From contig OZ219815.1 of assembly GCA_964291235.2 (NCBI GenBank), forward strand, positions 128,001-192,000: a DNA stretch of 64,000 bases. Reading direction: 5' to 3'. Under the pieces are notes generated by a model. It saw nothing but the letters and a program-made list of their open reading frames with translations. It ran no database searches and was not told the DNA's origin. Source of the DNA: Vicinamibacteria bacterium. Lineage in GTDB: Bacteria; Acidobacteriota; Vicinamibacteria; Marinacidobacterales; Marinacidobacteraceae. Made by a program: the position numbers and the translations under genes. Position 1 is the stretch's first letter, and each line of letters starts with the position of its first letter. Below are positions 37,401 to 53,577 of this stretch, piece after piece.

Positions 37401-38660
37401 TCAGTGGTCAACGGTGCGTAATGGCCGGTGTCGCCAGAGCAGCCAGTTCAGGAAGGTCGCCACCGCAGCCATCGCCACCACGATTCCAAAGGCCCCGTCC
37501 CAACCGTGAGCATCGATCAGATACCCCATCCCGACCCCCGTGAAGATCGCGCCCGCCGCTCCGATCCCGTCCACGATTCCGGAGGCGGAAGCCGAGGCTT
37601 TTGTCCCCCCGAAGTCCATCACCATGGCTCCCGACATCAGGGAATAGGGGCCGTAGAGCGTGAAGCCCACGAGCCCAAGCGCCGCTGCCAGCCAGAGGCT
37701 CTCCTCGGCCGGCAATCGGCTGAACAGGTAGATGGAGAGCGTGAGCACGACGCTCATGATCGCAAGCACCGGCCCCCGCCCGGCACCCACCCGGTCGGAA
37801 ACCCACCCGGCGGTTATGGAGCCCGCCGAACCGAGCAGCGGGAAAACTGCCGAGGCGGCGGCCGCGGCGCCGATCCCGGCGCCCGCCTGCACCAGGTAAT
37901 CCACCGACCATCCCCAGAAGGTGTAGCGGATCACGGAGAGCAACAGATAGCTTGTGCACATGATCCAAAACGCCGGGCTCGCCAGCATCCGGCGGCGCAA
38001 GCCGCCCCCCTGCCCGCTCCCGGCAACCGGATCGCGGAGCGTTTCCGGAGGCGCGGGAGCTGGCGGCGCGGCGGGCGGATCCGGCCGGATGAGGCGGTAG
38101 AGCGCGAGCCCGAGCAAAGCCAGCAGGCCGGCGTGCGCCCAAAAAAGTCCGGACCAGCCAAGCGCCACGACCAACACCGCGGCCGAAGCGCGGGCGGCGA
38201 AGTCGCCGAGCTGGTAGCTGATCGACATGAACCCCATCACCCGGCCGCTCTCCCGGCTGGGGTACCAGCGGGCCATGATCGGCATGATGGCCAGCCAGCC
38301 CATCGTCTGGAAATACGCGTTGACGCCCCAGACCGCGACGAAGAAGAGGAGTTCCCGGCCGAAACCGAAGACCGCGTTCATGAGCACGGAACCGAAGACG
38401 CCGATGAAGAACATCGCCTTGCCCCCGATGCGGTCACCGAGGAATCCGTTCAGAAGTTTCGACGCCGCGTACACCGCGAAGTACACCGACAGGATCAGCC
38501 CGGTCTCGGTGCTGGAATAGTCAAAGGCCTCCCCGATCAACGGTAGGGCCACCGGGAGCGTGACGCGGCCCAGGTAGTACCCCGCGTAGGCGACGAACAG
38601 GAGCACCGTCAGCAGCAGGCGCTGCCGCCCAAAACCCGGTGACTCCGCGACGCCCCTCAC
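37401..38660 (-). CDS. MFS transporter, organophosphate:Pi antiporter (GlpT/UhpC)-like
   Basis: YAGYYLGR, GFLGDR, WYPSRESGR, GWVSDR, ASGIVDG; about 12 TM segments. Confidence 0.85.
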   Translation of the reverse strand: MRGVAESPGFGRQRLLLTVLLFVAYAGYYLGRVTLPVALPLIGEAFDYSSTETGLILSVYFAVYAASKLLNGFLGDRIGGKAMFFIGVFGSVLMNAVFGFGRELLFFVAVWGVNAYFQTMGWLAIMPIMARWYPSRESGRVMGFMSISYQLGDFAARASAAVLVVALGWSGLFWAHAGLLALLGLALYRLIRPDPPAAPPAPAPPETLRDPVAGSGQGGGLRRRMLASPAFWIMCTSYLLLSVIRYTFWGWSVDYLVQAGAGIGAAAAASAVFPLLGSAGSITAGWVSDRVGAGRGPVLAIMSVVLTLSIYLFSRLPAEESLWLAAALGLVGFTLYGPYSLMSGAMVMDFGGTKASASASGIVDGIGAAGAIFTGVGMGYLIDAHGWDGAFGIVVAMAAVATFLNWLLWRHRPLRTVDH

Positions 38661-38749
38661 CTCAGCGCCCGCCGAGTTCGATCAATGCTTCCATCCGCGG
38701 GGGTGGGTCCCAACCGGTGCGTTCGGAGTGAGAAGAGGCCAGCCGCTAA

Positions 38750-38956
38750 CAGCCCGTGGACGAGGTGGCGTGAGCACCGAGGCCCCGCCGGGGCACTGCC
38801 CTGCAAGAGGTGCGGCTGACCCAGTTCTCGCGGCGGCGCCAGACAGAGGAAGCCCTGGCGTACTTCGACCGAAGCGCAACGACGAGTGAAGCAAGGGCAA
38901 GCGGTTCAGCCGGTATGTTTGTTGGTCCAACGCCACCTCACCTCGTTTACAGGCTG
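38750..38956. mobile_element. MITE-like element with CAGCC...GGCTG terminal inverted repeats at the left edge of the sterol cassette
   Basis: Left end CAGCCCGTGGACGAGGTG vs reverse complement of right end CAGCCTGTAAACGAGGTG (15/18); no credible ORF inside. Confidence 0.55.
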
Positions 38957-39169
38957 TTCTCGCCGTGGAGCCGCAGGGCTGGCGGCCTCTCAATTACACT
39001 AGCCCCGGTTGCGGGGGAGGAATGTGGGGGGAGGAGAGTCTTGGTTCCGGCTGACTCCAGCCGCTCCACCCCCTCCGTCCCGACCACCGCTGACGGGGAC
39101 GCAACGCCCGGGTCGCCTTCTTCATCCTCCGCAGGCGCGAAGATCCGGCGTCGCAGATTCGAGTGAACT

Positions 39170-40252
39170 ATGAAATCCGGAACCAGGCCAGGACCAGCCA
39201 TGCGGCCCACCGGGCAAATCCGTGAACTGTCCGATGGGCTGAGAAGCGCGTTCGACGGATCGAACGTCAAGGACCGGGTGCAGGACTTCGAAGGATGGAC
39301 CGACCGGGCGTCCCACGCAGATTCCACCCGGGAGTACGACCACACGCGGACCGTCAGGGAGTACTACGACCTCTGTACCGAGTTCATGGTCTGGGGCTGG
39401 GGAGAATCCCTGCACTTTGCGCCGCTGTCGCCTTTCGAGAGCTTGGAGGACTCGAAGATCAGGCACCAGAGAGTCATGATCTCCAAACTCGACCTGCGTC
39501 CGGACATGACGGTGATTGATGTCGGCTGCGGGATCGGCGGTCCGATGCGCCGCGTCGCCCGTGAGGCCGGAGTCAGGGTTGTCGGGATCAACGCCAGTGA
39601 AGTCCAGAGCAACAAGGCCAGGCAATTGAACACCGCTGCGGGACTCGATGACATGACCGAATGTCTGCAATGCAGCTTCATGGACATGAGTGCGATCGCG
39701 GACGAGACCTTCGACCGTGGCTACGCGATCGAATCAACCTGCCATGCGGCCGACAAGGTGGGCGCGTTCGCCGAAATCTACCGTGTCCTGAAGCCCGGAG
39801 CTCTCTTCTGGGGCCAGGAAATGTGCATGACGGACATCTACGACCCGGGCAGCGACCAGCAACGCGCCATCAAGCGGGAGCTCATGCACGGCATCGCGCT
39901 CAAGGACATCGCGACGTTCGGCGAGGTGCATCGGGCGCTCGAAACCGCCGGATTCGAAGTCGTGGAGGGGGCGGATCTCGCCATCGGTCAACAGCGTCCG
40001 CACACGCCGTGGTATCAGCCCATGGAAACGCGGCGCGGGCTGCCCGGGAGCACTTTCCGCCGGATTCCGGTGGGTCGCAGGGCGACGGGGTGGGGAATCA
40101 GGATAGCGGAGTTCCTCGGTGTGTTCCCGAAGGGCTCGGCGGAGGTGGTCGCACTGCTGGATCGGACCGCAAACGCCTATGTCGCGGGGGGCAGGACGGG
40201 AATCTTCACACCGCTTTACTGCTTCGTGGCGCGCCGGCCTCTTTCGGGTTAG
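39170..40252 (+). CDS. Sterol 24-C-methyltransferase (ERG6/SMT)-like SAM methyltransferase
   Basis: All SMT signature regions in order: YYDLCTEFMVWGWGESLHFAP (Region I), IDVGCGIGGP (II), YAIESTCHA (III), FAEIYRVLKPG (IV), PWYQP and C-terminal GGRTGIFTPLYCFVARRP. Confidence 0.85.
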   Translation: MKSGTRPGPAMRPTGQIRELSDGLRSAFDGSNVKDRVQDFEGWTDRASHADSTREYDHTRTVREYYDLCTEFMVWGWGESLHFAPLSPFESLEDSKIRHQRVMISKLDLRPDMTVIDVGCGIGGPMRRVAREAGVRVVGINASEVQSNKARQLNTAAGLDDMTECLQCSFMDMSAIADETFDRGYAIESTCHAADKVGAFAEIYRVLKPGALFWGQEMCMTDIYDPGSDQQRAIKRELMHGIALKDIATFGEVHRALETAGFEVVEGADLAIGQQRPHTPWYQPMETRRGLPGSTFRRIPVGRRATGWGIRIAEFLGVFPKGSAEVVALLDRTANAYVAGGRTGIFTPLYCFVARRPLSG

Positions 40253-40289
40253 CCCCGCCCACCTGGGGGCTCTTCCCCCCGCGCGCCCG

Positions 40290-43200
40290 TCAACCGGACG
40301 CCTCGCTGGCCAGTTCTCGCCGCGCCGAGGTCAGGCGCAGATGGAACGAGGAAAGCGCGGGCACCAGAAACACGATGAGGACCGTGGTGAAGACGATGCC
40401 GCAGCCGATCGAGGCGGAGAAGGGAACGAAGAACTGCGCCTGAATCGCGTCTTCGAGAATCAGGGGCGTGAAGCCGAGAAAGGTCGTCAGGGACGTCAGC
40501 ATGATCGGGCGGAAACGCCCCTTCGCACCCTCGATGATCGCGGTTCGCGCCGGGACGCCGTCCCGGAGTTTCTGATCGGTGAAATCGATCATCACCAGGG
40601 AATCGTTCACCACCACGCCGGCGAGGCCGAAGATCCCGACAAAGGATTGCGCGCTCACGGCTACCCCCAGCACCCAGTGACCCAGGATCACGCCGATGAA
40701 CCCGAACGGGATGATGGCCATGACGATGAACGGTTTGGTGTAGGAGCGCAGGGGGATGGCCAGCAGCGCGAAGATCATGAGCAGCGCGATCACGAATCCC
40801 CGATAGAGACCGCCCAGAGAGTCGAGTTGCTGCTGCTGTTCCCCTCCGAAGGTGTACGTGAGATCCGGGTTCTCGGCGATGAGCCCCGCCAGGATGGTGT
40901 TCTCGAGAATGTCATTGGCGGTCCCGGCGGAAATCACACTGGGATCGACGTCAGCGCTCACCGTGACCACGCGCTGGCCGTCCTGGCGCCGGATGGCCGG
41001 CGGGGAGGTGCCCGAACTCAGGGAAGCCACCCGGCTTATCGGCACGTCGGCGCCGGCTGGCGTCCGGAGCCGGTAACTTTCAACGTCGGTGATCGAGTTC
41101 CGCTGCTCCTCGGGCAGCCGGACGTAAACCCGAACTTCGTCACGTCCTCGCTGCACCCGGACGGCTTCCGCGCCAAAGAAGGCGGCTCGCGTCTGCCACG
41201 CAAGGTCGTCAAGCGTCAGGCCGAAGGTGCGCGCTTCGGGGAGCATTCCCACTTGGATCTCCGGGATGCCGGGAGTGTGATCCGAGCGGATGTCGAAGAC
41301 GCCGCCGACTCCGCCGAGATCTGCGACAGTGGAACTCGCGATCTCGTTGAGGCGTTCCGGATCCGGGTGGGACAGCGCGGCTTCGAGCGGGTTTCCCAGG
41401 GTGAAGATCTGGCTGAAGAAGGTGACCGCCCGCGCCTGAGGCAGGACACCCACCTCCTCACGCCATGCCTGGACGACATCTCCCGAAGTGATGCGCCGCT
41501 GCTGCGCACTCAGGAGCTTGAACTCGATGGTGGCGAGTTTGGCTTCCGGGTTCAGGGTGGGAGAGGGGTTGAGCCCCCCGGTCTCGATTCGAGACCGCCG
41601 ACCGACGACGACCGTAACGCCGGACAGCAGCGGAGGCGCATCCGCGGACCGGCCTTCGGAAAGCCGCTCGATGGCCCTGCGACCGGCCACTTCGAGTTCC
41701 TGCGCCACGGCGTACGTTTGCCGCGCGGTTGTGCCGTCCGGCATCTCGAGCGTGGCGATTGCGAAATCGCCTTCGACCTCGGTCGTGAAGACGGCCGGGA
41801 CGATGCCGGCGGGAATGAGCGAAACGCTCAGGATGAGCAGCGCCACGGCCCCCGAGACCGTTACCCCGGGCCAGTCCGTCGCGAACTGGATCCCGCGATC
41901 CAGCGGCCCTTGGACAAAGCTGTTCAGCAGTGAATCGACACGATTCTGGATTCGGGCGACGAATCGTTCGAAGCGCGTGCCGGGAACCCAATCCGGGCCG
42001 TGCAGATGATGGGACAGGTGGTTGGGCAGCACCAGCAGCGATTCGGCCAACGAAAACAGCAGCATGGCAATGACGATGATCGGCAGCGCCTTCCAGACCT
42101 CGCCGAACCCTGCAGGTATGAAGAGCAGGGGAACGAACGCCACGATCGTCGTCAGCACCGCGAAGATCAGCGGCACCTTGATGCGTCTCGCCCCCCGGAT
42201 TGCCGCCACGACCCCCTGCGCACCGCGCCTTCGTTCGAGGTGGATGTGCTCCGACACGACGATCGCATCGTCCACGACGATGCCGATGGCGAGTACGAAA
42301 GAGAAGAGCGACACCGCGTGGAGCGGAATGTCGAACACCAACATGGCGGCCAGCGCGCCGATTCCGGAAACGCCGAGACCGACGGCGACCCAGAAAGCCA
42401 GCCGGAGTTGGAGGAAAAGACCCAGCGCGAGCAGGACCAGCAACAGCCCCAAGGCCCCATTCTTGAGGAGTAGGGTGGCGCGCTCCACAAAGGTCGAAGA
42501 GTCGTCGAGCCAGATGTTGATGCCCACGCCGTCAGGGAGCATGGGGATCGCCTCGTTCGTGACGTAGCCGCGCACCGCGCGCGCCAAATCCATCACCTTC
42601 TCGCCGTCGGCTCGCGAGATGTCGACGAACACGGCAGGGTGGCCCTCGTGCCGGACGATCAGACCGGCGTCCTGGAAGCCGTCGCGCACCTCGGCAATGT
42701 CACCCAGGCGCACAACGGTGCCGTCGTCGTGCCCGAGGATGACGATGTCCTCGAAATCCTGCTGGTCGTAACTCTGACCGAGGGTCCGAATCCGCACCTG
42801 GGACTGCTCGGTATCGATGCTCCCCGCGGACAGGTCCAGGGAACCTCGGCGAATCGTATTGGCGATGTCGGTCAGCGTGAGCCCAAGAGCCCGCAACCGC
42901 TCCAGCGGCACCTCGATCGAGATCTCGTAGTTGCGCACCCCGCTGGTAGCGACCTGGGACACGTTGGGGAGCGCGGCGAGATCGTCCTCGATACGGTAGG
43001 CGAGTTCCTTCAGCGAGCGTTCGGGAACGTCGCCGTAGAGGATGAGGCGCATTGTGCTCTCGGCGTTCGTCATTTCCCGGATCTGCGGCCGCTCGGCACC
43101 TCCCGGGAAGGTCTGGATCCGCGCGACCGCCGACTCGATTTCATCCTTCTTGGCGTCCATGTCCGTCCCCGAGTTCACTTCGACCCTGACGGACGCCATC

Positions 43201-43493
43201 CCCGGGGCCGCTATGGAGCGGACCGCCTTCACGTCGGCCAGTCCCCGGACCTGATCCTCGATCTTGACGACGATGGCCTCCTCCACCTCTTCGGGCGTCG
43301 CGCCGGGAAACGGCACCGAGATTTCGAACTGGTTGAAGGGCACCGTGGGCCACCCTTCCTGCTCGAGGCCGGTCAGCGACACCAGGCCCACGGCGAGGAT
43401 GCCGAACATCAGCAGATTGGACGCGACGCCGTTGCTCGCCATGTAGGCGATCGGTCCGCGGGGTTCGGCGTGGTTGCCTCGGTCGGAACTCAT
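40290..43493 (-). CDS. RND efflux permease (AcrB/AcrD/AcrF family)
   Basis: FPGATPEEVEE, VRLGDIAEV, IGIVVDDAIVVSE, LTTIVAFVPL, GVVVNDSLV, RFRPIMLTSLTTFLGFTPL. Confidence 0.95.
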   Translation of the reverse strand: MSSDRGNHAEPRGPIAYMASNGVASNLLMFGILAVGLVSLTGLEQEGWPTVPFNQFEISVPFPGATPEEVEEAIVVKIEDQVRGLADVKAVRSIAAPGMASVRVEVNSGTDMDAKKDEIESAVARIQTFPGGAERPQIREMTNAESTMRLILYGDVPERSLKELAYRIEDDLAALPNVSQVATSGVRNYEISIEVPLERLRALGLTLTDIANTIRRGSLDLSAGSIDTEQSQVRIRTLGQSYDQQDFEDIVILGHDDGTVVRLGDIAEVRDGFQDAGLIVRHEGHPAVFVDISRADGEKVMDLARAVRGYVTNEAIPMLPDGVGINIWLDDSSTFVERATLLLKNGALGLLLVLLALGLFLQLRLAFWVAVGLGVSGIGALAAMLVFDIPLHAVSLFSFVLAIGIVVDDAIVVSEHIHLERRRGAQGVVAAIRGARRIKVPLIFAVLTTIVAFVPLLFIPAGFGEVWKALPIIVIAMLLFSLAESLLVLPNHLSHHLHGPDWVPGTRFERFVARIQNRVDSLLNSFVQGPLDRGIQFATDWPGVTVSGAVALLILSVSLIPAGIVPAVFTTEVEGDFAIATLEMPDGTTARQTYAVAQELEVAGRRAIERLSEGRSADAPPLLSGVTVVVGRRSRIETGGLNPSPTLNPEAKLATIEFKLLSAQQRRITSGDVVQAWREEVGVLPQARAVTFFSQIFTLGNPLEAALSHPDPERLNEIASSTVADLGGVGGVFDIRSDHTPGIPEIQVGMLPEARTFGLTLDDLAWQTRAAFFGAEAVRVQRGRDEVRVYVRLPEEQRNSITDVESYRLRTPAGADVPISRVASLSSGTSPPAIRRQDGQRVVTVSADVDPSVISAGTANDILENTILAGLIAENPDLTYTFGGEQQQQLDSLGGLYRGFVIALLMIFALLAIPLRSYTKPFIVMAIIPFGFIGVILGHWVLGVAVSAQSFVGIFGLAGVVVNDSLVMIDFTDQKLRDGVPARTAIIEGAKGRFRPIMLTSLTTFLGFTPLILEDAIQAQFFVPFSASIGCGIVFTTVLIVFLVPALSSFHLRLTSARRELASEASG

Positions 43494-43560
43494 CGGCAAG
43501 GGGCGGGGCGGATCCAGAAATGCGCTCGCGTGTCGGTCGCGCGGCTATCGGCCTCCGCGC

Positions 43561-45582
43561 TCACACGGGATTCGGGATTTGCGCGACCCGGAACTTCAGT
43601 TTCCGGTTCGGGGCCAGGGTCGGGAACGGATTGATGCCCAGCTTGTAGTTGTCGGGCGCCACTTCAAGCTGCAGGTGATACGCGATGAGCAGGACGTTCA
43701 CGGCCATCTGAAGCTCCACCCACCGATGGCCGAGGCACATGTGCGTACCCAGGCCGTAGGGCGCATAGGCGCCCGGTTGCAAATGTTCCGCCCGGTCCGG
43801 GAGGTACCGATCGATGTCGAACTTCAGGGGATCCTTGTACAAGTCATCGGAATAGTGCGGCACCGTCTGGCAAATCAATGCCATCGTCTTCGTCGGTATC
43901 CCGTATCCACTGACAACGCACTCGTTCATGACCGTTCTCAACTGCCAGGGAATCACTGGATACATACGCGAGGATTCCATGCAGAGACGAACCGTGACGT
44001 CGACGCTGTCGTGACTGAAATCATCGTCCTTCGGTTCACGACCGTTACCGAAGAGCGACTCCGCCTCACTACGGATCCTCGCGTACACCTCCGGGTTGCG
44101 AACCATGTTGTACACCGCGAAGGCGAGTCCGCTGCCGAGGTAGATGCTGGCAACCATGGCCGCCACGAACGGAAACGTAAGGTCGGTTTCGGGCAAGAAC
44201 TGTGGATCGCTCTTGTGGAGCTCGAGAAGCGCATCGGCGATGTCCCGGGGCTTCCCCTTGCGCTGGGCCGGCGTGTGTGATGCCGTGATCGCCTCCTGGA
44301 GGCTCTTGACATGCCTTCCGTAGCGTTTCATTCTCGGCGTGGACAGCATGAAATCCGGCAAGGCGCCCTGAACCCGCGTTACCAGCGCGCGGTGTTCAAA
44401 AGCCAGCAACTCGTCCACATAGTGGCTGCAGTCCACTCCCATCGTGAGGTGCGAGATCTGACTGCTGATGTGGTGTTGAAAGCTCTCGGTGCCGCGGAAG
44501 ATGTCCCCCTGTTGCCACCGGCCCAGCGACTTGCGGCAGTCGTCGATCAGCTCCGGTAGTCGCCGCGCCAACGTGGCCCGGGAATACGCGCTCTGGAGCG
44601 ACTTTCGCATTCGATAGTGTTCGGCCCCATCCATTCCCGGCAGGCTCCGGGAGGCTCCGAATGCACGTTCCAGCCGCTCGATGTAGTCCTTGGAACGGAG
44701 GTAGAATCGCCCGTGCTGGTTTACCCAGCGATTGACATCCGGACCCATCAAGGCAACCACCGGCGCACCCCGGATCTTGAAGGGCATTCGGACGACGGGT
44801 CCCTGTTGTCGGTAGATACCGTGCATCGCCTTCGGGATGTTGCCCGAAAGGAAATCACGTTCCCGCAGGACACCGAGGAATCGGAGCCGCGGAATGGGTT
44901 TGGTCCGGAGAACGCGGCGGGTCTTCGGCTTCGCGGTGCTGTCCTTCACGGCGGCGGCAACCGTCCGCCCGATGAGATCCAGCCTGGCTACCAGTTCGAT
45001 GCGGTCGAGGCGCTCGTCGTAGTCCTCTTCCTCGAGCAGCATCTTGAACCCGCCACAGGTGTGCATCAGGGCCACGAGGATCGCATCGCGCGGGTCGGGT
45101 ATCTCGTCGTTCAGGATGACGCTCAGGACTCTCGTCTTGGATTCGCCGCGGGACTCGGCGGCTTGGGCCGGGTAGGTTCCCGAATGGGAGACATCGCGAG
45201 AGAGGCCCCAGAATCCGCCGGTCTGGTGCGTGAGGATGTTCCGCTCCACCAGGCGGTCGAGCGTTGCCGCCACGATCTCGTCGGTGCGGCGCGCGTTTCG
45301 TTCGATCCAGAACTGGGCGTCCGATTTCTCATCGGACTCGGCGATGTCCTTGAGCGTCGGGTCGAGCAGGTCGTCGCCGGTCGGGGTGGGGTCCACCAGG
45401 TACAGCCGTTCCAGATCGGTCTCGATGCGCCGTTCCAGCGCCAGGTCGGCGAGCACCGCTCCGGCCATGACACAGGAGAAATCCCATCCCGGAACCATTT
45501 CCAGATAGCCGCTCTGCTCGTCGAGCATCAGGAGGATCAACTCCTCGGCGATGCGGATCGGGAACTGGGTAGCCGCGCTCAT
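43561..45582 (-). CDS. Fusion protein: N-terminal GPP34/GOLPH3-like domain + cytochrome P450
   Basis: GGAGG SD, ATG 45582. N-terminal IAEELILLMLD..SG, AGAVLADLALERRI, PTGDDLLD, LVERNIL, P.PRDA.LVAL (GPP34-like). C-terminal ESSR (ExxR), DPLKFDIDRY and PYGLGTHMCLG (heme Cys). Confidence 0.88.
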   Translation of the reverse strand: MSAATQFPIRIAEELILLMLDEQSGYLEMVPGWDFSCVMAGAVLADLALERRIETDLERLYLVDPTPTGDDLLDPTLKDIAESDEKSDAQFWIERNARRTDEIVAATLDRLVERNILTHQTGGFWGLSRDVSHSGTYPAQAAESRGESKTRVLSVILNDEIPDPRDAILVALMHTCGGFKMLLEEEDYDERLDRIELVARLDLIGRTVAAAVKDSTAKPKTRRVLRTKPIPRLRFLGVLRERDFLSGNIPKAMHGIYRQQGPVVRMPFKIRGAPVVALMGPDVNRWVNQHGRFYLRSKDYIERLERAFGASRSLPGMDGAEHYRMRKSLQSAYSRATLARRLPELIDDCRKSLGRWQQGDIFRGTESFQHHISSQISHLTMGVDCSHYVDELLAFEHRALVTRVQGALPDFMLSTPRMKRYGRHVKSLQEAITASHTPAQRKGKPRDIADALLELHKSDPQFLPETDLTFPFVAAMVASIYLGSGLAFAVYNMVRNPEVYARIRSEAESLFGNGREPKDDDFSHDSVDVTVRLCMESSRMYPVIPWQLRTVMNECVVSGYGIPTKTMALICQTVPHYSDDLYKDPLKFDIDRYLPDRAEHLQPGAYAPYGLGTHMCLGHRWVELQMAVNVLLIAYHLQLEVAPDNYKLGINPFPTLAPNRKLKFRVAQIPNPV

Positions 45583-45762
45583 CCTCTTCGACCTCCAGAT
45601 CGAGCGGCTTGAGGCCAAGCCACCAGCCCCTCTGGATGGTCCGGTTGAAATACTAGTCCATTCGCAGGCGGCCGGCGGGTCCGGATTCCCCTGGGATCAC
45701 GACCGCCATCCCCGATGGCGCGCGCCAGAAAGCTGGCCGCGCGCGTGGGTAGAGTAGAAGGC

Positions 45763-47142
45763 ATGGGTGAAGTGAAGGGCAGAACGCCGCGGAGGATTGC
45801 CATCGTGGGTGGGGGCGTCTCGGGCCTGGGGGCCGCCTGGGCGCTCCATCAGCATCCGGACCGCTTCGATTTCCGGCTGTTCGAAGCGCAGGCGCAGCTC
45901 GGCGGCAACGCGATCACCGCCGACATGCCGCAGGACGACGGAAGCACGATCCCGTTCGATATCTCCGTCACCGCCTGTATTCCGTCGGCATACCACCACT
46001 TTGTCCTGCTCATGCAGCAACACGGTATCGAGCTGATCGATACCCGGTTCAACTACAGCGTGAGGTATCGAGGCCAGACATATGCCCATGATTTCGACTC
46101 GGACATCAGGCGGCAGTTGCGGCCCGAAATCGAGAAGTTCCAGCGGCTCCTGAAACGTCTCCATTGGTGGGGGCGGCTCAACCTGTCCCGGTCCAAACTG
46201 CTCAGTGCATGCAATCCGTTCAACTACGTCAGCATGGGCGCGCTGTTGAACCTGGGCAGGTACTCGGGGGACTTCCGGTACAAGGTTCTGAAACCCATGT
46301 TCGTCAATTTCCTGATGGCGACGAACGTGTTCGACATGCCGGCGTCGCTCTTTTCTCGGTATCTGGATTTCTTCGACATCGAAACCGCGACGCCGATGCA
46401 GACGTGGGACCAGGGAACGCGGCGGATCTATCAGGAGCTCTCCGCGGCCTTCCCGGAGAAGATCTACCTGAACCGGCCCGTGCGAAAGGTTCACCGGCGC
46501 CGTACCGAAGTAGTCGTAGAGGACGAGAACGGTACGACCGAGACGTTCGATGACGTCGTTTTCGCGTGCAACGCGAACCAGACGCTGATGCTCCTGGACA
46601 AGCCGACGCGGCTGGAGGGTTGGCTCCTCTCCTCGATCCGGTACGAGAGCGAACTGCACAACCATACGGTCGTCCACTCGGACGCCTCGGTCCTTCCGGA
46701 TAATGAGGTCCAGCCATTGGCCACCCGGAGCAACCACATCGAGCAGTACGGTGCGAGGCCCGACAACTACGAAATCACCTACATCATGCACAACCAGCAG
46801 CCGTGGGCGAACAGGTCGGACAAGCCATGCCTCGTGACCTACAACCCGATCAGTCATATCGACGACAGCAAGATCGTCAAGAAGTGGTGGTTTCAGCACA
46901 TCGTGCACGACGTGCCTCACGTGACGTTTCTGACCCAGATGTTTCGCTTCGTTCAGGGCCGGAGGCGAACCTGGCACTGTGGCGCCCACACCCTGATCAA
47001 CAGCCAGGAGACCTGTTTCGTTTCCGGCCTCGTGACGGCGAGGCAGCTCGGAGCCGGCTACCCGTTCCAGGATCCTGAAGCCAGGAAATGGTTCAACTTC
47101 TACGGACGCGTGATGTACGGCTGGCGCTTCAAGGCCGCGTAG
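45763..47142 (+). CDS. FAD-dependent oxidoreductase (amine-oxidase fold; resembles the NAD/FAD-binding partners of lipid methyltransferases)
   Basis: RIAIVGGGVSGLGAAWAL, FEAQAQLGGNA, FDDVVFAC, VVHSDASVLP, QGRRRTWHCGA, ETCFVSG. Confidence 0.82.
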   Translation: MGEVKGRTPRRIAIVGGGVSGLGAAWALHQHPDRFDFRLFEAQAQLGGNAITADMPQDDGSTIPFDISVTACIPSAYHHFVLLMQQHGIELIDTRFNYSVRYRGQTYAHDFDSDIRRQLRPEIEKFQRLLKRLHWWGRLNLSRSKLLSACNPFNYVSMGALLNLGRYSGDFRYKVLKPMFVNFLMATNVFDMPASLFSRYLDFFDIETATPMQTWDQGTRRIYQELSAAFPEKIYLNRPVRKVHRRRTEVVVEDENGTTETFDDVVFACNANQTLMLLDKPTRLEGWLLSSIRYESELHNHTVVHSDASVLPDNEVQPLATRSNHIEQYGARPDNYEITYIMHNQQPWANRSDKPCLVTYNPISHIDDSKIVKKWWFQHIVHDVPHVTFLTQMFRFVQGRRRTWHCGAHTLINSQETCFVSGLVTARQLGAGYPFQDPEARKWFNFYGRVMYGWRFKAA

Positions 47143-48157
47143 CCTCGCGATTCGCGGGCTCGGCGTAGAACTGTCGGCAGTAGCGCCGGTACATCCCGAT
47201 CTCGCCGTCGGAGCGGCACAGGCTCGGGCGCGACCGGTACCGTTTCCGGCTCCAGATCTCCACGTCCTGCCTGACGTCGTGCTTCTGGAAGGTCAGCATC
47301 AACTTGTTCATGAGGTCGGTGCGGAGGGCCGGGGGGAGGAATCTCAGCCCCACGATCGGCCGTTTCGGTTTCCTGAGCCGCCGCAACTGGCTGACCAGCA
47401 CCAGATCGATCAGCGTGCCATCGACGGGCGTCGCTAGCACCCACAGGCGCCCGTCCATTCCAATGGACCGCTCGTGGAACTCCACGAACGAATATCCGAG
47501 CCCGACGACATGGGCGGTGGCAGAGACATCGAACGCGAGATCCACGATCCCGGCGACGCTTTGCGTGCGCCTGAAGTCAAAGCTACTCACCAGATGGGCG
47601 CCGTCCACGGTTACCGCGCCGACCCGACCGACATTGCCGTAGCCGTGCACGTACCGGAGGTGCGCCATGTCCACGGCGTTCTCACTCGTTTCCTGGGGGT
47701 GTCCCCGAAACCGGAGAGTCCGGAACGCCAATTCACACCAGTCGTCCCCGCCGGAAGGCTCTTCGGGAAGGCTCCACTGAGGGGGTCGTCGGTCGATGCC
47801 CCACCAGGCGAAGACGATGCCAAGGATTTCCCGCGTCTCGAATGCCGTCAGCTTCGCGGTCTTCGGCGGCGGGGCAAAGGGAGTGGCGACGCATTGCCCG
47901 CTGACGTCGAACTCGTAGCCGTGAAAGGGACAAACAAGACGGCCATCGCGCACCCGGCCGCCGGCGGCGGGGCCCAGTTCGGACCCGAGGTGCGGACAGA
48001 CCGACTCGGCCACCGAGATCCCGCCGGCATCGTCGCACCAGGCGACGATGTTCTTTCCCATCCAGGACTTCTGGATGAGCTTCACCTTCTCCAGGGACCG
48101 CCGGGTGGCAACGAAATACCAGCCCTCCGGGTACGGAGAGAGCGTGGATTCACTCAT
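47129..48157 (-). CDS. Rieske non-heme iron oxygenase/desaturase, Neverland/DAF-36/KshA-like
   Basis: C-terminal part of ORF 47129..49585, ATG 48157. PYPEGWY, CPHLG...CPFHG (2Fe-2S), ENAVDMAHLRYVH (mononuclear Fe), QDVEIWSRKRY..RP.L...DG.I..YRRYCRQFY. Confidence 0.88.
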   Translation of the reverse strand: MSESTLSPYPEGWYFVATRRSLEKVKLIQKSWMGKNIVAWCDDAGGISVAESVCPHLGSELGPAAGGRVRDGRLVCPFHGYEFDVSGQCVATPFAPPPKTAKLTAFETREILGIVFAWWGIDRRPPQWSLPEEPSGGDDWCELAFRTLRFRGHPQETSENAVDMAHLRYVHGYGNVGRVGAVTVDGAHLVSSFDFRRTQSVAGIVDLAFDVSATAHVVGLGYSFVEFHERSIGMDGRLWVLATPVDGTLIDLVLVSQLRRLRKPKRPIVGLRFLPPALRTDLMNKLMLTFQKHDVRQDVEIWSRKRYRSRPSLCRSDGEIGMYRRYCRQFYAEPANREATRP

Positions 48158-48252
48158 GCGTACTGACCGGCATTCTCGCCCAAGACTCGTAGCTCCTCCG
48201 CCGCCCCACCCGGCGGATCTGAATTCCAGGTGATCGAACTTCGCTTCGAGCG

Positions 48253-49473
48253 CTACTCCGCTGTCCGCACCCGCATTCCCTCGGTCGCGAACTGGATCCC
48301 ACCCACGACCACCTTCTGGCCGTCCTGTAGTCCACCGGTGACGTACACGTCGTCGTTGAAGCGTTGGAGCACGCGAACCGGCACAATCGTCACCGCATCG
48401 TCTCTGAGCGCCCAGACCTCGTTGCCCGGCCTGAGCGCCAGACGCCGGATCCGAAAGTACGCCTCGGGAGCGGCGCCGCCAATCTCGACATCCACAAACT
48501 GACCGACCAGCAGGGGCGGCGCCGAGAGCCCGGCCGGAGATTCGGCGCCCTCGCTCCCGTTGCGGCCCTCCACCGGGGAACCACCCACGAAGGGGTTCGG
48601 GACGCGCACGATCACATCGAGAGTCCGGGTCCCTTCGTCCACTGCCGCCTCGAATCGGTCCACGGTTCCCGCCCAGGCATAGCTGGTGGTTCCGTGCCTG
48701 GCGATGACGCGGGCTGCAACCCTGGTGTCTCCGGAGCCGGCCCGAAGTTCCCAAAGGCCCGGGATGAGCGCCGCGTCGGCGTCGGAAAGGGATACCACGA
48801 TCTCGACCGCATCGGAGGCGTAGATCGCTCCCACGCTCATTCCGGCGGTCACGAATTGCCCGACGCCCACCGTTTCGTGCCGGACTACGGCGTCGAAGGG
48901 CGCCTGGACCGCGGTCCGCGAGAGCAGGAGTTCGGCCTCCGCCAGGAGGGCGCGGTCCCGTTCCAGGGCAGCCCGCGCCGCCTCGAGTTGGGGCTCCCAC
49001 TGCGCCAGGGGACTGACGTCCGCGTTTTGTCCATCGCCCGCCCGGCTTCGGAACGCAGCGTACTGCTCCTTCGCGATCCGTGCTTCTTCCTCGACCTTCA
49101 GCAACTCGACCTGCTGGACGGCGACGCTGGCGCGCGCCTGCTCTCTCCGGTGGCGGTAGTCGGCGTCGTCGAGGCGGAAGACGACCTGGCCCTCGGTCAC
49201 CCGGCCGCCGCTTTCGAAAGCCGGATCGACCCAGACCACGCGTCCGCTCACCCCCGCGGCCACGTCCACCTGCACCCGAGGCCGCACGGTTCCGCTGCCG
49301 TACACCGGAATTGCGCCGGAGCCGGCGACCGCCGGGGCGGTGGACGCGAAGGGAATCTGCGAGGGAGGCTCCCGCCGCTCGGGTTCCGGCCGCTGGGCGA
49401 CCAGCAGGGCCGCAATCCCGAAGGATGCCAGCAGGATCGCCGCCGCCAGGACATATCCCTTGGTTCGATTCAT
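48253..49473 (-). CDS. RND efflux periplasmic adaptor (membrane fusion protein)
   Basis: N-terminal TM; GTVRP, VSGRVV, GG.V..GQV.F.LD..DY, RTAVQAPFDA.V, VDEGTRT, GLQDG. Confidence 0.92.
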   Translation of the reverse strand: MNRTKGYVLAAAILLASFGIAALLVAQRPEPERREPPSQIPFASTAPAVAGSGAIPVYGSGTVRPRVQVDVAAGVSGRVVWVDPAFESGGRVTEGQVVFRLDDADYRHRREQARASVAVQQVELLKVEEEARIAKEQYAAFRSRAGDGQNADVSPLAQWEPQLEAARAALERDRALLAEAELLLSRTAVQAPFDAVVRHETVGVGQFVTAGMSVGAIYASDAVEIVVSLSDADAALIPGLWELRAGSGDTRVAARVIARHGTTSYAWAGTVDRFEAAVDEGTRTLDVIVRVPNPFVGGSPVEGRNGSEGAESPAGLSAPPLLVGQFVDVEIGGAAPEAYFRIRRLALRPGNEVWALRDDAVTIVPVRVLQRFNDDVYVTGGLQDGQKVVVGGIQFATEGMRVRTAE

Positions 49474-51017
49474 CGGTCCGTCGCTCCTTTGGCCGTGGCG
49501 CGGGATCCGTCCATCGGTGCGCGGGCGATCTCGTCCGGAGGCGTCCAGGCGCCTCCCAGGGCGCGGTGAATGGCCAAACGGGCAAGAGAGAGGTTCCGTT
49601 CGGAACCCGCGAGAGCGGATTCCACCTCCAGGAGGTTCCCGGTGGCGTCCAGCAGGTCGCGGTAGCCGCCTACCCCCGACTCGTAGCGTTCTTTCTGGAG
49701 ACCCACGGAGGCTTGCGCCTCCTCCTGCTGCGCCAGCAACGATGCGCGGCGACGGCCCTCGTTCCTCAGCGTGGCAAGGGCCGCTTCCACCTCGTTCACC
49801 GCGGTCACCACCGTCTGCCCGTAGGCAGCGGCCAGTTCGTCAAAACGGAACTCGGCCAATTCGACGCCCTTCGCCAGGCGGCCGCCGTCGAACACCGGCC
49901 GAAGCAGGTTGGACGCCAGGTTCGCGAACCACTGCTGCACGTCGAACAGCCCGCCGCCATCCGTGCTCTGGAGCCCGATGGACCCACGGAGCGAGAGTTG
50001 CGGCATCAACGCCGCGCGACGCGCTTCGGCGGCGTGGCTGGCGGCCTCCAGCCGGTGTCCCGCCGCCTGGACGTCCGGCCGCTGCGACAGGAGGTCCGCC
50101 GGGATTCCGGCCGGCACAGGATCCACGGCAAGGGCGGAAGAAAGGGAATCGGGAAGGATCGCCATCACATCCTTGCGATACCCACCAAGCAGGATCGCGA
50201 GCCCGGATTCCGCCTCGGCAAGCTGGTTCTGGATTCCGGGCATTCCGGCCTCGGCGGCCGAAAGCGCCTGGCGCACGCGGTAGAGGTCGCTCGACCTCGC
50301 GAGTCCGCGTTCGTAGCGACCCCTGACCAGCCGCTCGCGCTCCTCCAGTACCTCTACCTGCCGCCGGGTGACGGTGAGTTGCCGCCGCAAATGGCCGATC
50401 TCAAAGTAAGCCGCGATCGTCTCGGCGAGGATTCCGATACGTGCGGCCTGCAGGTCGAACTCCGAGGCGAGCAGCTCGGATCCCGCGGCGAGCGCGGTGT
50501 GACGGGCGCGGCCCCAGAAATCGGCTTCGTAGGCGAAGTCGGCGCTCAGGGAATAGGTCGGGAAACCCAGCCGGTCGGGAAGCGGAAAGTCAAGGCCGAG
50601 ATCCTCGAGCTGCGCGCCAATGGCGGCGTTGGTCGGCACGTCGAAAGCATCGACCCCGGCGCGGGCTCCGACCACCGGCAGGATCGCCGCGTCGGCCAGC
50701 CGAGCCCGCGTCCTGGCCTGTTCGACCCGGGCCACCGCTTCCGCGACGGAAAAGTTGGAAGCGAGCACCGATTCGACCACCTGGTCGAGCGCCGGATCGG
50801 CGAAGGCCCGCCACCACTCCTGCGCCCGGTAGGGGCCGGCGCCGGGAGTCTCGACGAAGTCGCTCGGCAACTCCGGAGCCGCCTCCTGCGCTGGGGCCGG
50901 AGGAGCGGATCCGGAGACCAGGGAGCAACTGCCGACACCGCCGCCGACCAGGAACACGAAGCCCCAGGCGACGCCGATGGACGCCTGGATCTTCTGGCTG
51001 TTCAATCCGAGCAACAC
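49470..51017 (-). CDS. Outer-membrane efflux lipoprotein (TolC/NodT/OprM family)
   Basis: GGAGG SD, GTG 51017; VGSC lipobox; WWRAF.DP.L, YEADFWGR, PADLLSQRPDV.AA, P.FDGG, A..EVE.AL, ALGGAW. Confidence 0.93.
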   Translation of the reverse strand: MLLGLNSQKIQASIGVAWGFVFLVGGGVGSCSLVSGSAPPAPAQEAAPELPSDFVETPGAGPYRAQEWWRAFADPALDQVVESVLASNFSVAEAVARVEQARTRARLADAAILPVVGARAGVDAFDVPTNAAIGAQLEDLGLDFPLPDRLGFPTYSLSADFAYEADFWGRARHTALAAGSELLASEFDLQAARIGILAETIAAYFEIGHLRRQLTVTRRQVEVLEERERLVRGRYERGLARSSDLYRVRQALSAAEAGMPGIQNQLAEAESGLAILLGGYRKDVMAILPDSLSSALAVDPVPAGIPADLLSQRPDVQAAGHRLEAASHAAEARRAALMPQLSLRGSIGLQSTDGGGLFDVQQWFANLASNLLRPVFDGGRLAKGVELAEFRFDELAAAYGQTVVTAVNEVEAALATLRNEGRRRASLLAQQEEAQASVGLQKERYESGVGGYRDLLDATGNLLEVESALAGSERNLSLARLAIHRALGGAWTPPDEIARAPMDGSRATAKGATDR

Positions 51018-51095
51018 GCCTCCTCCGGACCTGAACCCGAGTTTATTCCAGAGGGGGCACGGCTCGAAACGAGATCGGCCGGCGCGGCGGGACGA

Positions 51096-52811
51096 TCACC
51101 AGCCGGCGGCGTGGCCCTCGCGCCGTTTGTCGGGTCCGCCGGAGAGGACTCCCGAACCGGGATAGATCTTGATCGCGTTCAGCATTCCGATCCGGTTCGG
51201 CGGCTGTCGGAGACGGTGGCCCCGGGCGTTCAGAGCCTCCCGCACCTCGTCGGAGAAGTCCTTTTCCAGGACGAGATCGGTTCCGTCCATGTACGGAATC
51301 GAGTTCGCCAGGTAGCGGACCACGAAACGCGGCGCGTCCACCGCCGCCGGCGCGTCCATCTCGTAATCCAGCGCTCGCACCAGCACCTGCACGATGGTCT
51401 GGGGAATCGTCCAGCCTCCCGCCGATCCGAGCGCGAAGTAGGGCTTGCCGTAGCGGGTCACGATGGTGGGGCTCATCACGAAGCGCGGCCGCTGACCACC
51501 CTCGATGACGTTCACGTCCTCGGTATCCAGGCTGAAGTAGGACATGCCGTTGTTGAAGATGATCCCGGTCTCGGGCACCACCACTCCCGCCGGAAGCATG
51601 AGCGTCTGGGTGATCGTCACCACGTTGTGGTCCTTGTCCACCACGGTGTGGTGGGTGGTGTGCTCGACCGCGGTGGGCAGGTCGTTCGTGGAGTGGACCG
51701 CCGCGTGAAACCGGGCGCGCGACGGGTCGATCCGGGCCGCCTGTTCGGCCGCGTATTCCTTGGAGAGCAGCCGGTCGAGCGGGATCCGGGCGTAGTCCTT
51801 CCCGGTGTTGTAGGCGTCCTCGTCCACGAAGGCGAGCTTCATGGCCTCCGAGACCAGGTGGACGAACTCCTCGGAGTTGTGTTCGAGCGCCGGCACATCG
51901 AACTGCTCGAGGATGTTCAGCGTCTGGAGAACGGTCATCCCCGAGCCGCCCGGCGGCTGGCTGTAAACCGTGTGGCCCCGGTAGGTAGTCGAGAGCGGTT
52001 CGCTCCAGCGAGCCCGATAGTTCTGGAAGTCCTCCACGGTGAGGATGCCGCCGTTTTGTCGGAAAAAGTCCACGACGGTCTCCGCCAGCCTTCCGCCGTA
52101 GAACACTTCCGGCCCGTCCGCGGCGATCGCCCTGAAGGTCTTCGCCAGGTCGGGCTGTTTCAGGATCTCGCCCACCGGCCAGGGCTTGCCGGCCTCGAAG
52201 AAGATGCTGGCGCCGTAGGGGTAGCGCGCCACGTCGGCGCCGAACCCACTGGTTCCAAAGGAGCCGTTCACCGCGGGGGTGACCGCAAAACCCCCCTCGG
52301 CGTATTCGATCGCCGGAGCCAGGACTTCGGCCCAGGACATCGAGCCGTACTCCTCGAGAAGCGCCGTCCAGCCGGCGAGGTTTCCGGGAACGAGCGGCGC
52401 CAGGAAGCTGTCGCGGGCGGGGTGGGTCCGGTCCCAGAGCTGGCTCCCCGCGGTAAACGCTTCGGGATCCGCCGCCGCTGGAGCCGCGCCGATGAAGTCC
52501 ACCGACCGGATGTCCCCCGTTTTTGCGTCGTGGATCAGGGCGTAGCCCCCGACGCCGCCGAGCCCGGACATCAGCGGTTCCACGACCGCTTTCACGGCCG
52601 CGCTCGCCACCGCGGCGTCGAAGGCGTTCCCGCCTGCCTGGAGCATGCGAAGCCCGGCCTGCGCCGCGAGCGGATGAGAGGTCACCACCATCCCGTTGAC
52701 GCTCATCCCGGCGCCTTCGGCGGGCTCGCGTAGCGAGGACGCGAGCAGCAGCGGGAGCCCCAGCAGCGGAGCCGCCCAGATGAGGGAGATTCGCCGTTTC
52801 GCGCGCATCAT
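51096..52811 (-). CDS. ggt: Gamma-glutamyltransferase
   Basis: GGAGG SD, ATG 52811; signal peptide; HPLAAQAG..ML.AGGNAFDAAVA, SGLGG, VPG, QPDLAKT, HTTHHTVVD (Thr nucleophile), MSPTIV, GSAGG, D.RREG. Confidence 0.93.
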   Translation of the reverse strand: MMRAKRRISLIWAAPLLGLPLLLASSLREPAEGAGMSVNGMVVTSHPLAAQAGLRMLQAGGNAFDAAVASAAVKAVVEPLMSGLGGVGGYALIHDAKTGDIRSVDFIGAAPAAADPEAFTAGSQLWDRTHPARDSFLAPLVPGNLAGWTALLEEYGSMSWAEVLAPAIEYAEGGFAVTPAVNGSFGTSGFGADVARYPYGASIFFEAGKPWPVGEILKQPDLAKTFRAIAADGPEVFYGGRLAETVVDFFRQNGGILTVEDFQNYRARWSEPLSTTYRGHTVYSQPPGGSGMTVLQTLNILEQFDVPALEHNSEEFVHLVSEAMKLAFVDEDAYNTGKDYARIPLDRLLSKEYAAEQAARIDPSRARFHAAVHSTNDLPTAVEHTTHHTVVDKDHNVVTITQTLMLPAGVVVPETGIIFNNGMSYFSLDTEDVNVIEGGQRPRFVMSPTIVTRYGKPYFALGSAGGWTIPQTIVQVLVRALDYEMDAPAAVDAPRFVVRYLANSIPYMDGTDLVLEKDFSDEVREALNARGHRLRQPPNRIGMLNAIKIYPGSGVLSGGPDKRREGHAAGW

Positions 52812-52908
52812 TCCGCCTCCTCCTGGAGAGAGCCGCCGGGAAGCTCCCGAAACGGCCGATGGTCCATCATAAGCACCTGGCGGAGGTGAGTAAGGATTCA
52901 CCCGACCG

Positions 52909-53577
52909 ATGCTTGCCCTGATTCTCTTCACTCTCCTGGTGCAGACCTCCCCCGTGTACGAAGTCCGCCGAGTCGCGGTCGAGGACGCCGCGCTCCTGGC
53001 CGCGGACGGACGGGAGTGGGATGGCGCCCGGGAGATCGGCTGGGGACCGGAGCCCTACCGCACGCGGTTCCGCGCGCTGTGGAACGAGCGCGGCCTCCAC
53101 CTGCGCTTCGAGTCCGAGGACGACGCGCCGTGGTTCACCATGACGAAGCGCGATGACCCGCTCTGGGAGGAAGAGGTGGTCGAGATCTTCCTCGACCCGC
53201 TGGGCGACGGACGCTACGTCGAAGTGGAGCTGAACCCGGCGAATGTGGTCTGTGACCTCCGGCGGCTCGGTCCGGACGAAACTGCTTCCGACCCCATCGG
53301 ACCCATGGATCGCGGCTTCTCGGTAGCCGGCATGGAGACCGCGGTCTCCACGTCGGAGGACCGCTGGACAGGAACTCTCTTCCTGCCGTGGGAGGGCCTC
53401 GGCCTGTCCGGCCCTCCCCGCCCCGGCATCGAAATTCCCTTCAACGTCTTCCGTATCAAGCGTCCGGGCGGACCCGAGGCGCCGGAGGCGGGGGCCGTCT
53501 TCGCCGCCTGGTCGCCGACGGGCAGTCCGAGCTTCCACGTTCCGGAAGCATTCCGCCCGCTGCGCTTCGTTCCGTGA
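52909..53577 (+). CDS. Carbohydrate-binding family 9-like (DOMON-like) protein
   Basis: TRFRALWN...L.L.F, RDDPLWEEEVVEIFLDP, Y.E.E.NP.N, N.FR, AWSPT..PSFHVPE.F. Confidence 0.82.
   Translation: MLALILFTLLVQTSPVYEVRRVAVEDAALLAADGREWDGAREIGWGPEPYRTRFRALWNERGLHLRFESEDDAPWFTMTKRDDPLWEEEVVEIFLDPLGDGRYVEVELNPANVVCDLRRLGPDETASDPIGPMDRGFSVAGMETAVSTSEDRWTGTLFLPWEGLGLSGPPRPGIEIPFNVFRIKRPGGPEAPEAGAVFAAWSPTGSPSFHVPEAFRPLRFVP

Follow-up and report, generated by a model that had tools for sequence, protein, structure and literature searches.

Sterol methyltransferases (SMTs) and proteins that fuse a GPP34 domain to a cytochrome P450 have each been reported from uncultured bacterial symbionts of sponges. 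According to the excerpts of PMC10070321 used here, the SMT genes are clustered with sdmA, sdmB and the gene encoding an oxidosqualene cyclase (OSC), and 13 of the 24 SMTs tested have an OSC in the cluster or in the metagenome-assembled genome (MAG). A 2025 preprint by Brown and Welander names 25 residues that all functional SMTs conserve, including the motif 84-GWGxxFHF-91. It states that every SMT found active on desmosterol or 24-methylenecholesterol keeps 84GWGxxFHF91, and that 7 of the 11 SMTs found inactive differ at conserved positions and may depend on different sterols. The GPP34-P450 fusion is described in the excerpted text of PMC11706023 as monophyletic, restricted to sponge symbionts and expressed in situ, and GPP34 proteins, including GPP34-P450, are proposed there to be secreted effectors that bind phosphatidylinositol-4-phosphate (PI4P). 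Rare GPP34-Rieske fusions are reported in the same excerpts, in which the analysis of flanking genes covers the short GPP34 forms only. Here we describe a locus in which an SMT-family gene and a GPP34-P450 gene (the fusion) lie together. It is located at 39170-51017 of a 64,000-nucleotide stretch of a Vicinamibacteria genome (positions 128001-192000 of contig 1, OZ219815.1; referred to below as the window), and its other five genes encode an RND permease, an FAD oxidoreductase, a Rieske oxygenase, a membrane fusion protein (MFP) and an outer-membrane channel (OEP). We consider it fairly probable that these seven genes form a sterol-linked tailoring and export module that acts on exogenous sterol. 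Horizontal spread of the module, in lineages that have been published as sponge symbionts, is the best explanation of its distribution.

Bacteria that edit sterols without synthesizing them have a precedent in Coxiella and Chlamydiae, which have eukaryote-like sterol reductases. In those organisms single reductases are involved, whereas the genome studied here has two ERG4_ERG24 reductase genes as well as a multi-enzyme set and a pump that are found across phyla. The Chlamydiae sterol-reductase case is also mentioned in the excerpts of PMC10070321. The combination of a Rieske and a KshA_C domain is shared with the KshA/Neverland family, but no KshB-type reductase recurs with the module and no steroid-degradation context was noted, kstD and hsa not having been searched for. 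BstA of Methylococcus is an HpnN/MMPL-like RND protein with periplasmic partners. The idea common to BstABC and the pump considered here is that of an RND-superfamily protein moving sterols from the inner to the outer membrane; the pump in the window combines an MFP and a NodT factor with a permease of the classical ACR_tran kind, which sets it apart from BstA as just described. The de novo steroid gene clusters (CSGs; Kelly et al. 2022, PMC9531527, in the excerpts available) and the SdmAB system of C-4 demethylation have habitat, horizontal spread and a link to SMTs in common with the module. A CSG comprises ERG24, CYP51, SdmA/SdmB-like genes and an OSC, which here is fused to squalene epoxidase; all of these are missing from the module in the window. 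CSG-type clusters are present in fusion-bearing genomes, and some of them touch module genes.

The SMT in the window has the same Pfam architecture and DxGxGxxGP motif as the published symbiont SMTs (PMC10070321 and the 2025 preprint) and comes from the same kind of uncultured lineages. Functional members of the published set carry GWGxxFHF, whereas the clade in the window is marked by Met81, Trp/Phe83 and Leu89 and has GPP34-P450 and a pump as its genomic partners in place of OSC, sdmA and sdmB. The fusion is the same two-domain protein as GPP34_L of PMC11706023; an effector is proposed there, whereas the context found here points to a membrane-tethered lipid oxygenase. An earlier reading of the window from its letters alone (the sequence-only reading) knew of no described system with such an architecture and left its novelty to be confirmed by a search. 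The parts are not new, as the SMTs (PMC10070321) and GPP34-P450 (PMC11706023) are in print, but no publication on the linkage of SMT, GPP34-P450 and pump was found in literature searches, although published supplements may list the clade or its neighbours.

Recurrence and Distribution of the Module

A scan of one genome per species yielded 79 loci, each comprising the fusion and 10 kb on either side; the loci were found through the fusion as an anchor, and many are from closely related MAGs. When the 1037 open reading frames (ORFs) of these loci were clustered, the fusion was found in all 79, the RND permease in 52, the Rieske oxygenase in 41, the MFP in 36, the SMT in 34, the OEP in 33 and the FAD oxidoreductase in 24. 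The next commonest family after these seven is present in only 9 of the 79 loci and is the gamma-glutamyltranspeptidase (GGT) that flanks the module in this lineage. Searches with tblastn, in which a partner was counted at 40% identity or more over at least half of the query, gave similar numbers (RND 48, MFP 47, Rieske 46, SMT 34, OEP 30, FAD 24). At least one partner was found in 70 of the 79 loci by this measure, and all seven genes in nine, each titled Acidobacteria or Vicinamibacteria. The grouping exceeds what chance would give, and the recurrence of the same seven families around the fusion bears out the proposal of the sequence-only reading that the genes form one functional module.

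The loci belong to at least five phyla, with titles that include Acidobacteria, Vicinamibacteria, Terriglobia and Bryobacterales, Rhodothermales, Gammaproteobacteria, Pseudomonadales and Thiotrichales, Nitrospirales, and Spirochaetia. One further locus is titled Latescibacterota and one is labelled Bifidobacteriaceae; phylum labels are those of the MAG titles, and an isolated odd label may reflect faulty binning. Gene order and orientation are shuffled between phyla. In Rhodothermales the order is mostly RND-Rieske-FAD-fusion, many gammaproteobacteria have fusion-RND-SMT-MFP-OEP-Rieske, and one gammaproteobacterial group (L061-L069) has just the fusion and the SMT, next to each other.

Within the class to which the window belongs the fusion is patchy. 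It was found in 37 of 301 genomes and in three of 22 families (17 of 27 genomes in f1, 18 of 43 in f9 and 1 of 48 in f11). A Sterol_MT_C domain was found in 19 of the 301 genomes; 18 of these 19 also have the fusion, and among the 264 fusion-less genomes just one has the domain. In the genus of the window's own genome, ten of the 15 other genomes have both the fusion and Sterol_MT_C and five have neither. The fusion and the SMT thus come and go together, with the reservation that kin are not independent observations.

The fusion is 60-77% identical across phyla. In a FastTree phylogeny of 84 fusions the sequences cluster by phylum label, but Rhodothermota is nested within Acidobacteriota, and the well-supported branches require at least five label changes for Acidobacteriota. 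The nesting, together with the high identity across phyla, fits transfer of the fusion between phyla.

Link to Sterol Biosynthesis and Probable Source of the Substrate

In three loci (L061, L063 and L064) the pair of fusion and SMT is immediately followed by genes for an SdmB-like protein, an SdmA-like Rieske protein, ERG24, a CYP51-like P450 and a fused squalene epoxidase-OSC. The best NCBIfam models for proteins of the de novo cluster are osq_cycl (741 bits), SdmA (411 bits) and SdmB (299 bits). Fused epoxidase-cyclase proteins of 1146-1563 residues are encoded at L086:11535-15020, L087:6693-10133, L088:10197-14888 and L093:14684-18214. Additionally, an orthologue of the FAD oxidoreductase abuts a de novo sterol cluster in three genomes (G022, G029 and G030), and a copy that heads such a cluster is 79% identical to the protein in the window; in another genome the copy is broken by several stop codons (G043:C23:2748-4123). 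Sterol_MT_C and ERG4_ERG24 were each found in 31 of 43 fusion-bearing genomes, versus none of 14 control genomes. The sterol link that had been suggested from the window is therefore supported by module genes that adjoin de novo sterol clusters in other genomes.

Neither a squalene epoxidase nor a cyclase was found in the window, as the sequence-only reading had stated, and the whole genome (3.45 Mb, two contigs, 90% complete) likewise yielded neither the epoxidase nor the N or C domain of a cyclase. Two closed chromosomes of the same clade (G002 and G004) are likewise without a cyclase. Among the 43 fusion-bearing genomes, 17 have no match to the cyclase C domain, five have partial matches below 40 bits, five have a cyclase-like gene of unclear kind at ~80 bits and one has a fragment at a contig edge. 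Ten genomes are of the epoxidase-OSC type, with the domains verified in four; the cyclase matches of 180-213 bits are, by Pfam, fused squalene epoxidase-OSC proteins. The five strongest cyclase matches, in 5 of the 43 genomes, are squalene-hopene cyclases (TIGR01507, 600-752 bits) and not OSCs. Sterol_MT_C was found in 14, and ERG4_ERG24 in 13, of the 22 fusion-bearing genomes that lack a substantial cyclase match.

Both ERG4_ERG24 genes of the window's own genome lie outside the window. One is ~100 kb past it, at C1:293739-299117, in a string that consists of an SDR gene, the reductase gene, a gene for an 873-residue Sulfotransfer_3 protein and a further SDR gene, after which come genes for a leucine-rich-repeat protein and a START-like Polyketide_cyc2 protein. 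From its domains this string could be a second sterol-modifying operon, for reduction and sulfation in a cyclase-less genome. The other (C2:1855712-1856770, 139.6 bits) has unrelated neighbours (hydantoinase, S-Me-THD and AroM). The presence of several sterol-family enzymes in a genome that has no cyclase suggests that sterols made by others are edited. The substrate is thus likely to be an exogenous sterol, and the exogenous substrate of the sequence-only reading is plausible for a genome with neither epoxidase nor cyclase.

A locus in a different genome (L093, G036:C1:612000-631999) has genes for MAPEG, FA_hydroxylase (ERG3/ERG25-like) and MpaB-like proteins downstream of the fusion. Approximately 17 kb further on, an MMPL and LolA-like pair adjoins the epoxidase-OSC gene and is a candidate for a sterol transporter of another type.

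The SMT-Family Methyltransferase

The SMT-family protein consists of a class I methyltransferase domain (Methyltransf_11, 6.5e-17) followed by Sterol_MT_C (65 bits, cut-off 21.7). Judging from the length of its relatives (~350 residues), translation probably begins at Met11 (39200). Relatives at 69-95% identity are found in many MAGs. The SAM-binding motif of Region II (125-DxGxGxxGP-133) is kept as DVGCGIGGP at the expected offset, and the protein appears to keep 24 of the 25 residues conserved in functional SMTs, an approximate mapping by offset made without a reference sequence.

The departure is in the sterol-binding Region I. The SMT in the window reads GWGESLHF with Met81 and Trp83, where the motif calls for 84-GWGxxFHF-91 with Tyr/Phe at 81/83. 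Met81 and Leu89 are present in all 33 fusion-linked SMTs except that of L078, and GWN replaces GWG in many of them. Both residues were also found in 110 of the 120 top homologues, the remaining ten being unmatched by the search pattern. The clade signature in Region I is therefore Met81, Trp/Phe83, Leu89 and often Asn86. The protein is 40% identical to the canonical SMT of a de novo sterol cluster, in which Region I is FYEFGWGRSFHF. By these features the SMT belongs to a divergent clade of the SMT family. Since the clade has Leu89 and often Asn86 and the functional SMTs have Phe89 and Gly86, no member of the clade is among the enzymes shown to be active on desmosterol or 24-methylenecholesterol. 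The C-24 methylation by an ERG6/SMT-type enzyme that was proposed from the window is hence not upheld for a clade that has Met81 and Leu89 and departs from GWGxxFHF. Multiple Sterol_MT_C matches were noted in some genomes (five in G043 and three each in G032 and G033).

The GPP34-P450 Fusion

The fusion gene probably starts at 45582, because relatives are 673 residues long. Both Pfam domains are present in the best 120 of 599 relatives, which were inspected for domains and are 69-100% identical; many MAG proteins with both domains are 69-93% identical to the fusion in the window. By its architecture, an N-terminal GPP34 domain and a C-terminal E-class P450, the protein is the GPP34_L of PMC11706023. 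Two copies of the fusion occur within one 22-kb locus in six cases (L001, L013, L020, L049, L056 and L060).

In the P450 domain the loop with the cysteine ligand is kept, and the I-helix AGxxT is replaced by A-S-x-Y-L-G-S, which is conserved among the 84 fusions. Such an I-helix may point to unusual oxygen chemistry. Among solved structures the P450 is best matched by CYP51, CYP24A1 and CYP46A1, at modest E-values; the top PDB match, to CYP51 (4.5e-20), covers residues 375-647 only. The P450 is 24% identical to the CYP51-like P450 of the de novo cluster, whose AGQHTS aligns to ASIYLG of the fusion. Assignment as CYP51 was ruled out by this identity and by the absence of the usual I-helix threonine. 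No reference sequence or solved structure of the C-22 desaturases CYP61 and CYP710 was among the matches.

The GPP34 domain was aligned to GOLPH3 with phmmer over residues 9-100 only (E 3.2e-4). Trp81, Arg90, Arg171 and Arg174 of GOLPH3 are residues which we take to form the basic PI4P pocket. In the alignment Arg90 corresponds to Ala40 and Trp81 to Val30, with a conserved Trp three residues off, and Arg171 and Arg174 are outside the aligned region. By analogy, we infer that the GPP34 domain is a peripheral membrane tether in the place where eukaryotic E-class P450s have an N-terminal anchor. The rare GPP34-Rieske fusions reported in the excerpts of PMC11706023 are consistent with GPP34 assisting oxygenases as an accessory domain.

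The Rieske Oxygenase and the FAD Oxidoreductase

The Rieske gene is hidden within a longer, spurious frame of 818 residues, and its start was fixed separately to give 342 residues. The motifs CPH...CPFH and DMAHLRYVH (the D-x2-H-x4-H iron motif) are present. The best solved relatives are KshA structures (6.2e-26, a phmmer match limited to residues 9-171), and from its domains and motifs the protein is classed as a KshA-type Rieske non-haem-iron oxygenase. It is 20% identical to the SdmA-like protein of the de novo cluster. SdmA itself was rejected as an assignment: the protein scores 34.5 bits against a cut-off of 600 for NF052579, through the Rieske domain only, in contrast to 411 bits for the SdmA-like protein of the de novo cluster.

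Among solved structures the FAD protein is best matched, along its full length, by the amide oxidase LkcE (3.2e-26). Orthologues with 72-89% identity were found in 27 of the 43 fusion-bearing genomes. The superfamily includes desaturases as well as saturases, so that by family membership the reaction could run in either direction. HpnE was considered and rejected (28.6 bits against a cut-off of 283). A single in-frame stop is located near the 5' end of the FAD match in four genomes (G005, G006, G017 and G042) and may precede the true start. In the ESM Atlas the FAD and Rieske proteins match generic oxidoreductase or Rieske clusters; a cluster automatically named 'cholesterol 7-desaturase family' appears at rank 30 and is a lead only.

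These results bear on the scheme of the sequence-only reading, in which methylation, methylene reduction and Delta7 and Delta22 desaturation would lead to an ergosterol-like sterol. The scheme is unsupported, as the Rieske protein is of the KshA_C type, the P450 is without the usual I-helix threonine and the FAD protein has LkcE as its best solved relative.

The Tripartite Pump

The ACR_tran permease, the MFP and the NodT factor are encoded together and by their families make up a tripartite RND efflux system. The best-scoring models for all three are multidrug-efflux subfamilies, but the permease scores 390 bits on the multidrug subfamily model against a cut-off of 1250. The RND permease of the module is 60-90% identical across fusion loci and is beside the fusion in 48 of 79, compared with only 35% for its best paralogue in the window's own genome. 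Each of the two strings, OEP-MFP-Rieske and fusion-RND, mixes pump genes with enzyme genes. The dedicated pump of the sequence-only reading is supported in that the pump genes travel with the enzyme genes.

Proposed Function and Alternative Explanations

In the proposed mechanism a sterol from the host or from sterol-making neighbours would be located in the inner membrane and edited by four cytoplasmic enzymes. The SMT-family enzyme would alkylate a double bond of the side chain, and the P450, held at the membrane by the GPP34 domain, would act alongside a KshA-type Rieske oxygenase that hydroxylates or desaturates the sterol. The amine-oxidase-type flavoenzyme would introduce a C=C bond or saturate one, and the product would finally be moved by the RND-MFP-NodT pump, either to the outer membrane or to the cell exterior.

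Several observations weigh against this proposal. The fusion is without any partner in 9 of the 79 loci, and it directly adjoins a de novo sterol cluster in only three, which are from near-identical MAGs and amount to one observation. Sterol_MT_C is missing in 12 of the 43 fusion-bearing genomes and ERG4_ERG24 is also missing in 12. The cyclase-less genome itself is 90% complete. No reductase or ferredoxin, including the KshB type, that could serve the P450 or the Rieske oxygenase as a redox partner recurs in the 79 loci. Additionally, the KshA_C, P450, amine-oxidase and ACR_tran families act on non-sterol substrates too, and the roles proposed for the module enzymes are read from sequence and context. 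The SMT clade has Leu89 and often Asn86, while functional SMTs all have Phe89 and Gly86 according to the preprint, and members of the clade may have been tested by others and found inactive.

An alternative is the effector model of PMC11706023, in which GPP34-P450 is secreted, binds host PI4P and blocks phagosome maturation, with neighbouring genes that are unrelated. The GPP34 match is clear (2.2e-34), the fusion is reported in the excerpts from sponge symbionts only and as expressed in situ, and nine of the 79 loci have the fusion without a partner. We nevertheless regard the model as improbable for this locus, since at least one of the six metabolic or pump partners is present in 70 of the 79 loci, in orders shuffled across phyla, and the genes for the fusion and the RND permease, 61 bp apart, look like an operon. 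No N-terminal signal sequence was seen by eye in the fusion, for which no predictor was run, and the alignment of GOLPH3 Arg90 and Trp81 to Ala40 and Val30 may speak against PI4P binding, within the limits of a weak alignment and of pocket roles that we assume. We know of no RND/TolC pump that exports folded proteins. In the excerpted text of PMC11706023 the words sterol, RND, efflux and methyltransferase are absent and adjacent SMT, Rieske, FAD and RND genes are unmentioned; as noted above, its flank analysis was of short GPP34 only.

The module could also serve in defence against xenobiotics, with a pump that expels toxic lipophiles of the host or its neighbours (terpenoids, alkaloids or saponin-like lipids) and four enzymes that detoxify them, sterols not being the substrate. 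P450s, Rieske oxygenases and flavin oxidases are classic xenobiotic enzymes, the pump proteins score best on multidrug-efflux subfamilies, and the patchy, horizontally moved module resembles a niche-adaptation island. The permease is, however, far under the multidrug cut-off (390 versus 1250 bits), and methyltransferases with Sterol_MT_C are not known for detoxification and were found in none of the 14 control genomes. The physical linkage of module parts to de novo sterol clusters elsewhere and the co-occurrence of the module with ERG4_ERG24 reductases also make this explanation unlikely. In a further alternative the substrate is an endogenous isoprenoid that is not a sterol: the SMT-like enzyme would methylate an acyclic or other triterpenoid, or a carotenoid, of the bacterium itself, and the oxygenases and pump would complete this lipid and deliver it to the outer membrane. 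SMT-like triterpene methyltransferases of the alga Botryococcus methylate squalene. The window's own genome has two SQS_PSY genes, and one SQS_PSY match, at C2:~802000-815700 (L091), is accompanied by an MpaB/Lcp-like oxygenase, two amine oxidases, two RND permeases that are 33-35% identical to the RND permease of the module, and an MFP. Another arrangement that combines isoprenoid and RND genes is thus present in this genome. The departure of SMT Region I from sterol-active enzymes and the fact that squalene and phytoene desaturases belong to the superfamily of the FAD protein (weak HpnE match) point the same way. Both SQS_PSY genes are, however, away from the module, and the SMT appears to retain Sterol_MT_C and, by the approximate mapping, 24 of the 25 conserved residues. 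SMT, FAD and fusion genes adjoin OSC-containing clusters elsewhere, a weak point since squalene is a precursor there too. We give the isoprenoid explanation a low probability, and a sterol-linked tailoring and export module remains the explanation that we prefer.

Gene Table and Genomic Setting

The gene content of 39170-51017 was taken from the ORF listing and Pfam, which confirmed the seven closely packed genes, with the order and strands given by the sequence-only reading (Table 1). The genes for MFP and OEP share 4 bp, and the Rieske gene, the last of its string, lies 95 bp beyond MFP. The RND gene is 61 bp downstream of the fusion on the same strand. The FAD and SMT genes are single genes on the opposite strand; the FAD gene is divergent from the fusion gene, and the 3' ends of the FAD and Rieske genes overlap by 14 bp.

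Table 1. Genes of the module, with positions in the window and the domain or family matches that identify their products
Product	Position	Strand	Match
SMT-family SAM methyltransferase	39170..40252	+	Sterol_MT_C 6.6e-18 (Pfam)
RND inner-membrane permease	40290..43499	-	ACR_tran 1.8e-149 (Pfam)
GPP34+P450 fusion	43561..45618 as ORF, 43561..45582 from likely start	-	GPP34 2.2e-34, p450 3e-33
FAD amine-oxidase-superfamily oxidoreductase	45715..47142	+	Amino_oxidase 5.6e-17
Rieske + KshA_C oxygenase, 342 aa	47129..48157	-	Rieske 2.5e-14, KshA_C 6.1e-26
MFP, periplasmic adaptor	48253..49473	-	HlyD_3; TIGR01730 RND_mfp 145.8 bits, cut-off 94.9
NodT-family outer-membrane channel lipoprotein (OEP)	49470..51017	-	OEP 2.5e-37; TIGR01845 outer_NodT 268.5 bits, cut-off 210

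The GC content of the window is high (0.62-0.71), and that of the module (0.62-0.65 over 38000-48000 of the window) is below that of the flanks (0.68-0.70). Despite this dip, synteny of the module with its flanking GGT, MFS and proline-racemase genes is kept in seven loci of related MAGs. The flanking genes are ordinary and encode an MFS transporter, a proline racemase and the GGT, with SecA and IMPDH farther off. A scan of 38500-53100 for promoters and terminators gave no promoter-like sites and nine terminator-like sites, against 8.8 expected. Just past the GGT gene, at 53642-56587, is a gene for a 981-residue protein with DUF5107 and many TPR repeats, which is not recurrent near the fusion.

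Significance

The module joins two separate puzzles of sponge symbionts, the bacterial SMTs and GPP34-P450, into one testable unit and provides a metabolic reading of GPP34-P450 to set beside the effector model. The Met81/Leu89 clade could explain the inactivity of some symbiont SMTs on standard substrates. With its pump, the module would be a first candidate case of a tripartite RND system of the classical type that is devoted to sterols.

It is conceivable, although we think it doubtful, that the module supplies the bacterial pathway, missing so far, by which the 'unconventional' side chains of sponge sterols arise. Once the P450, Rieske oxygenase and flavoenzyme had oxidized or desaturated a host sterol, the Met81/Leu89 SMT would alkylate it at a position not used by canonical SMTs, or would act on a substrate that these do not accept, and the pump would return the products to the host. 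The GPP34 domain would be a tether and not an effector, and some 'sponge' biomarker sterols (26-methyl and other odd alkylations) would be joint products. If cyclase-less symbionts do edit and export host sterols, then the side-chain-alkylated steranes that are used to date early animals would become a question of host plus symbiont.

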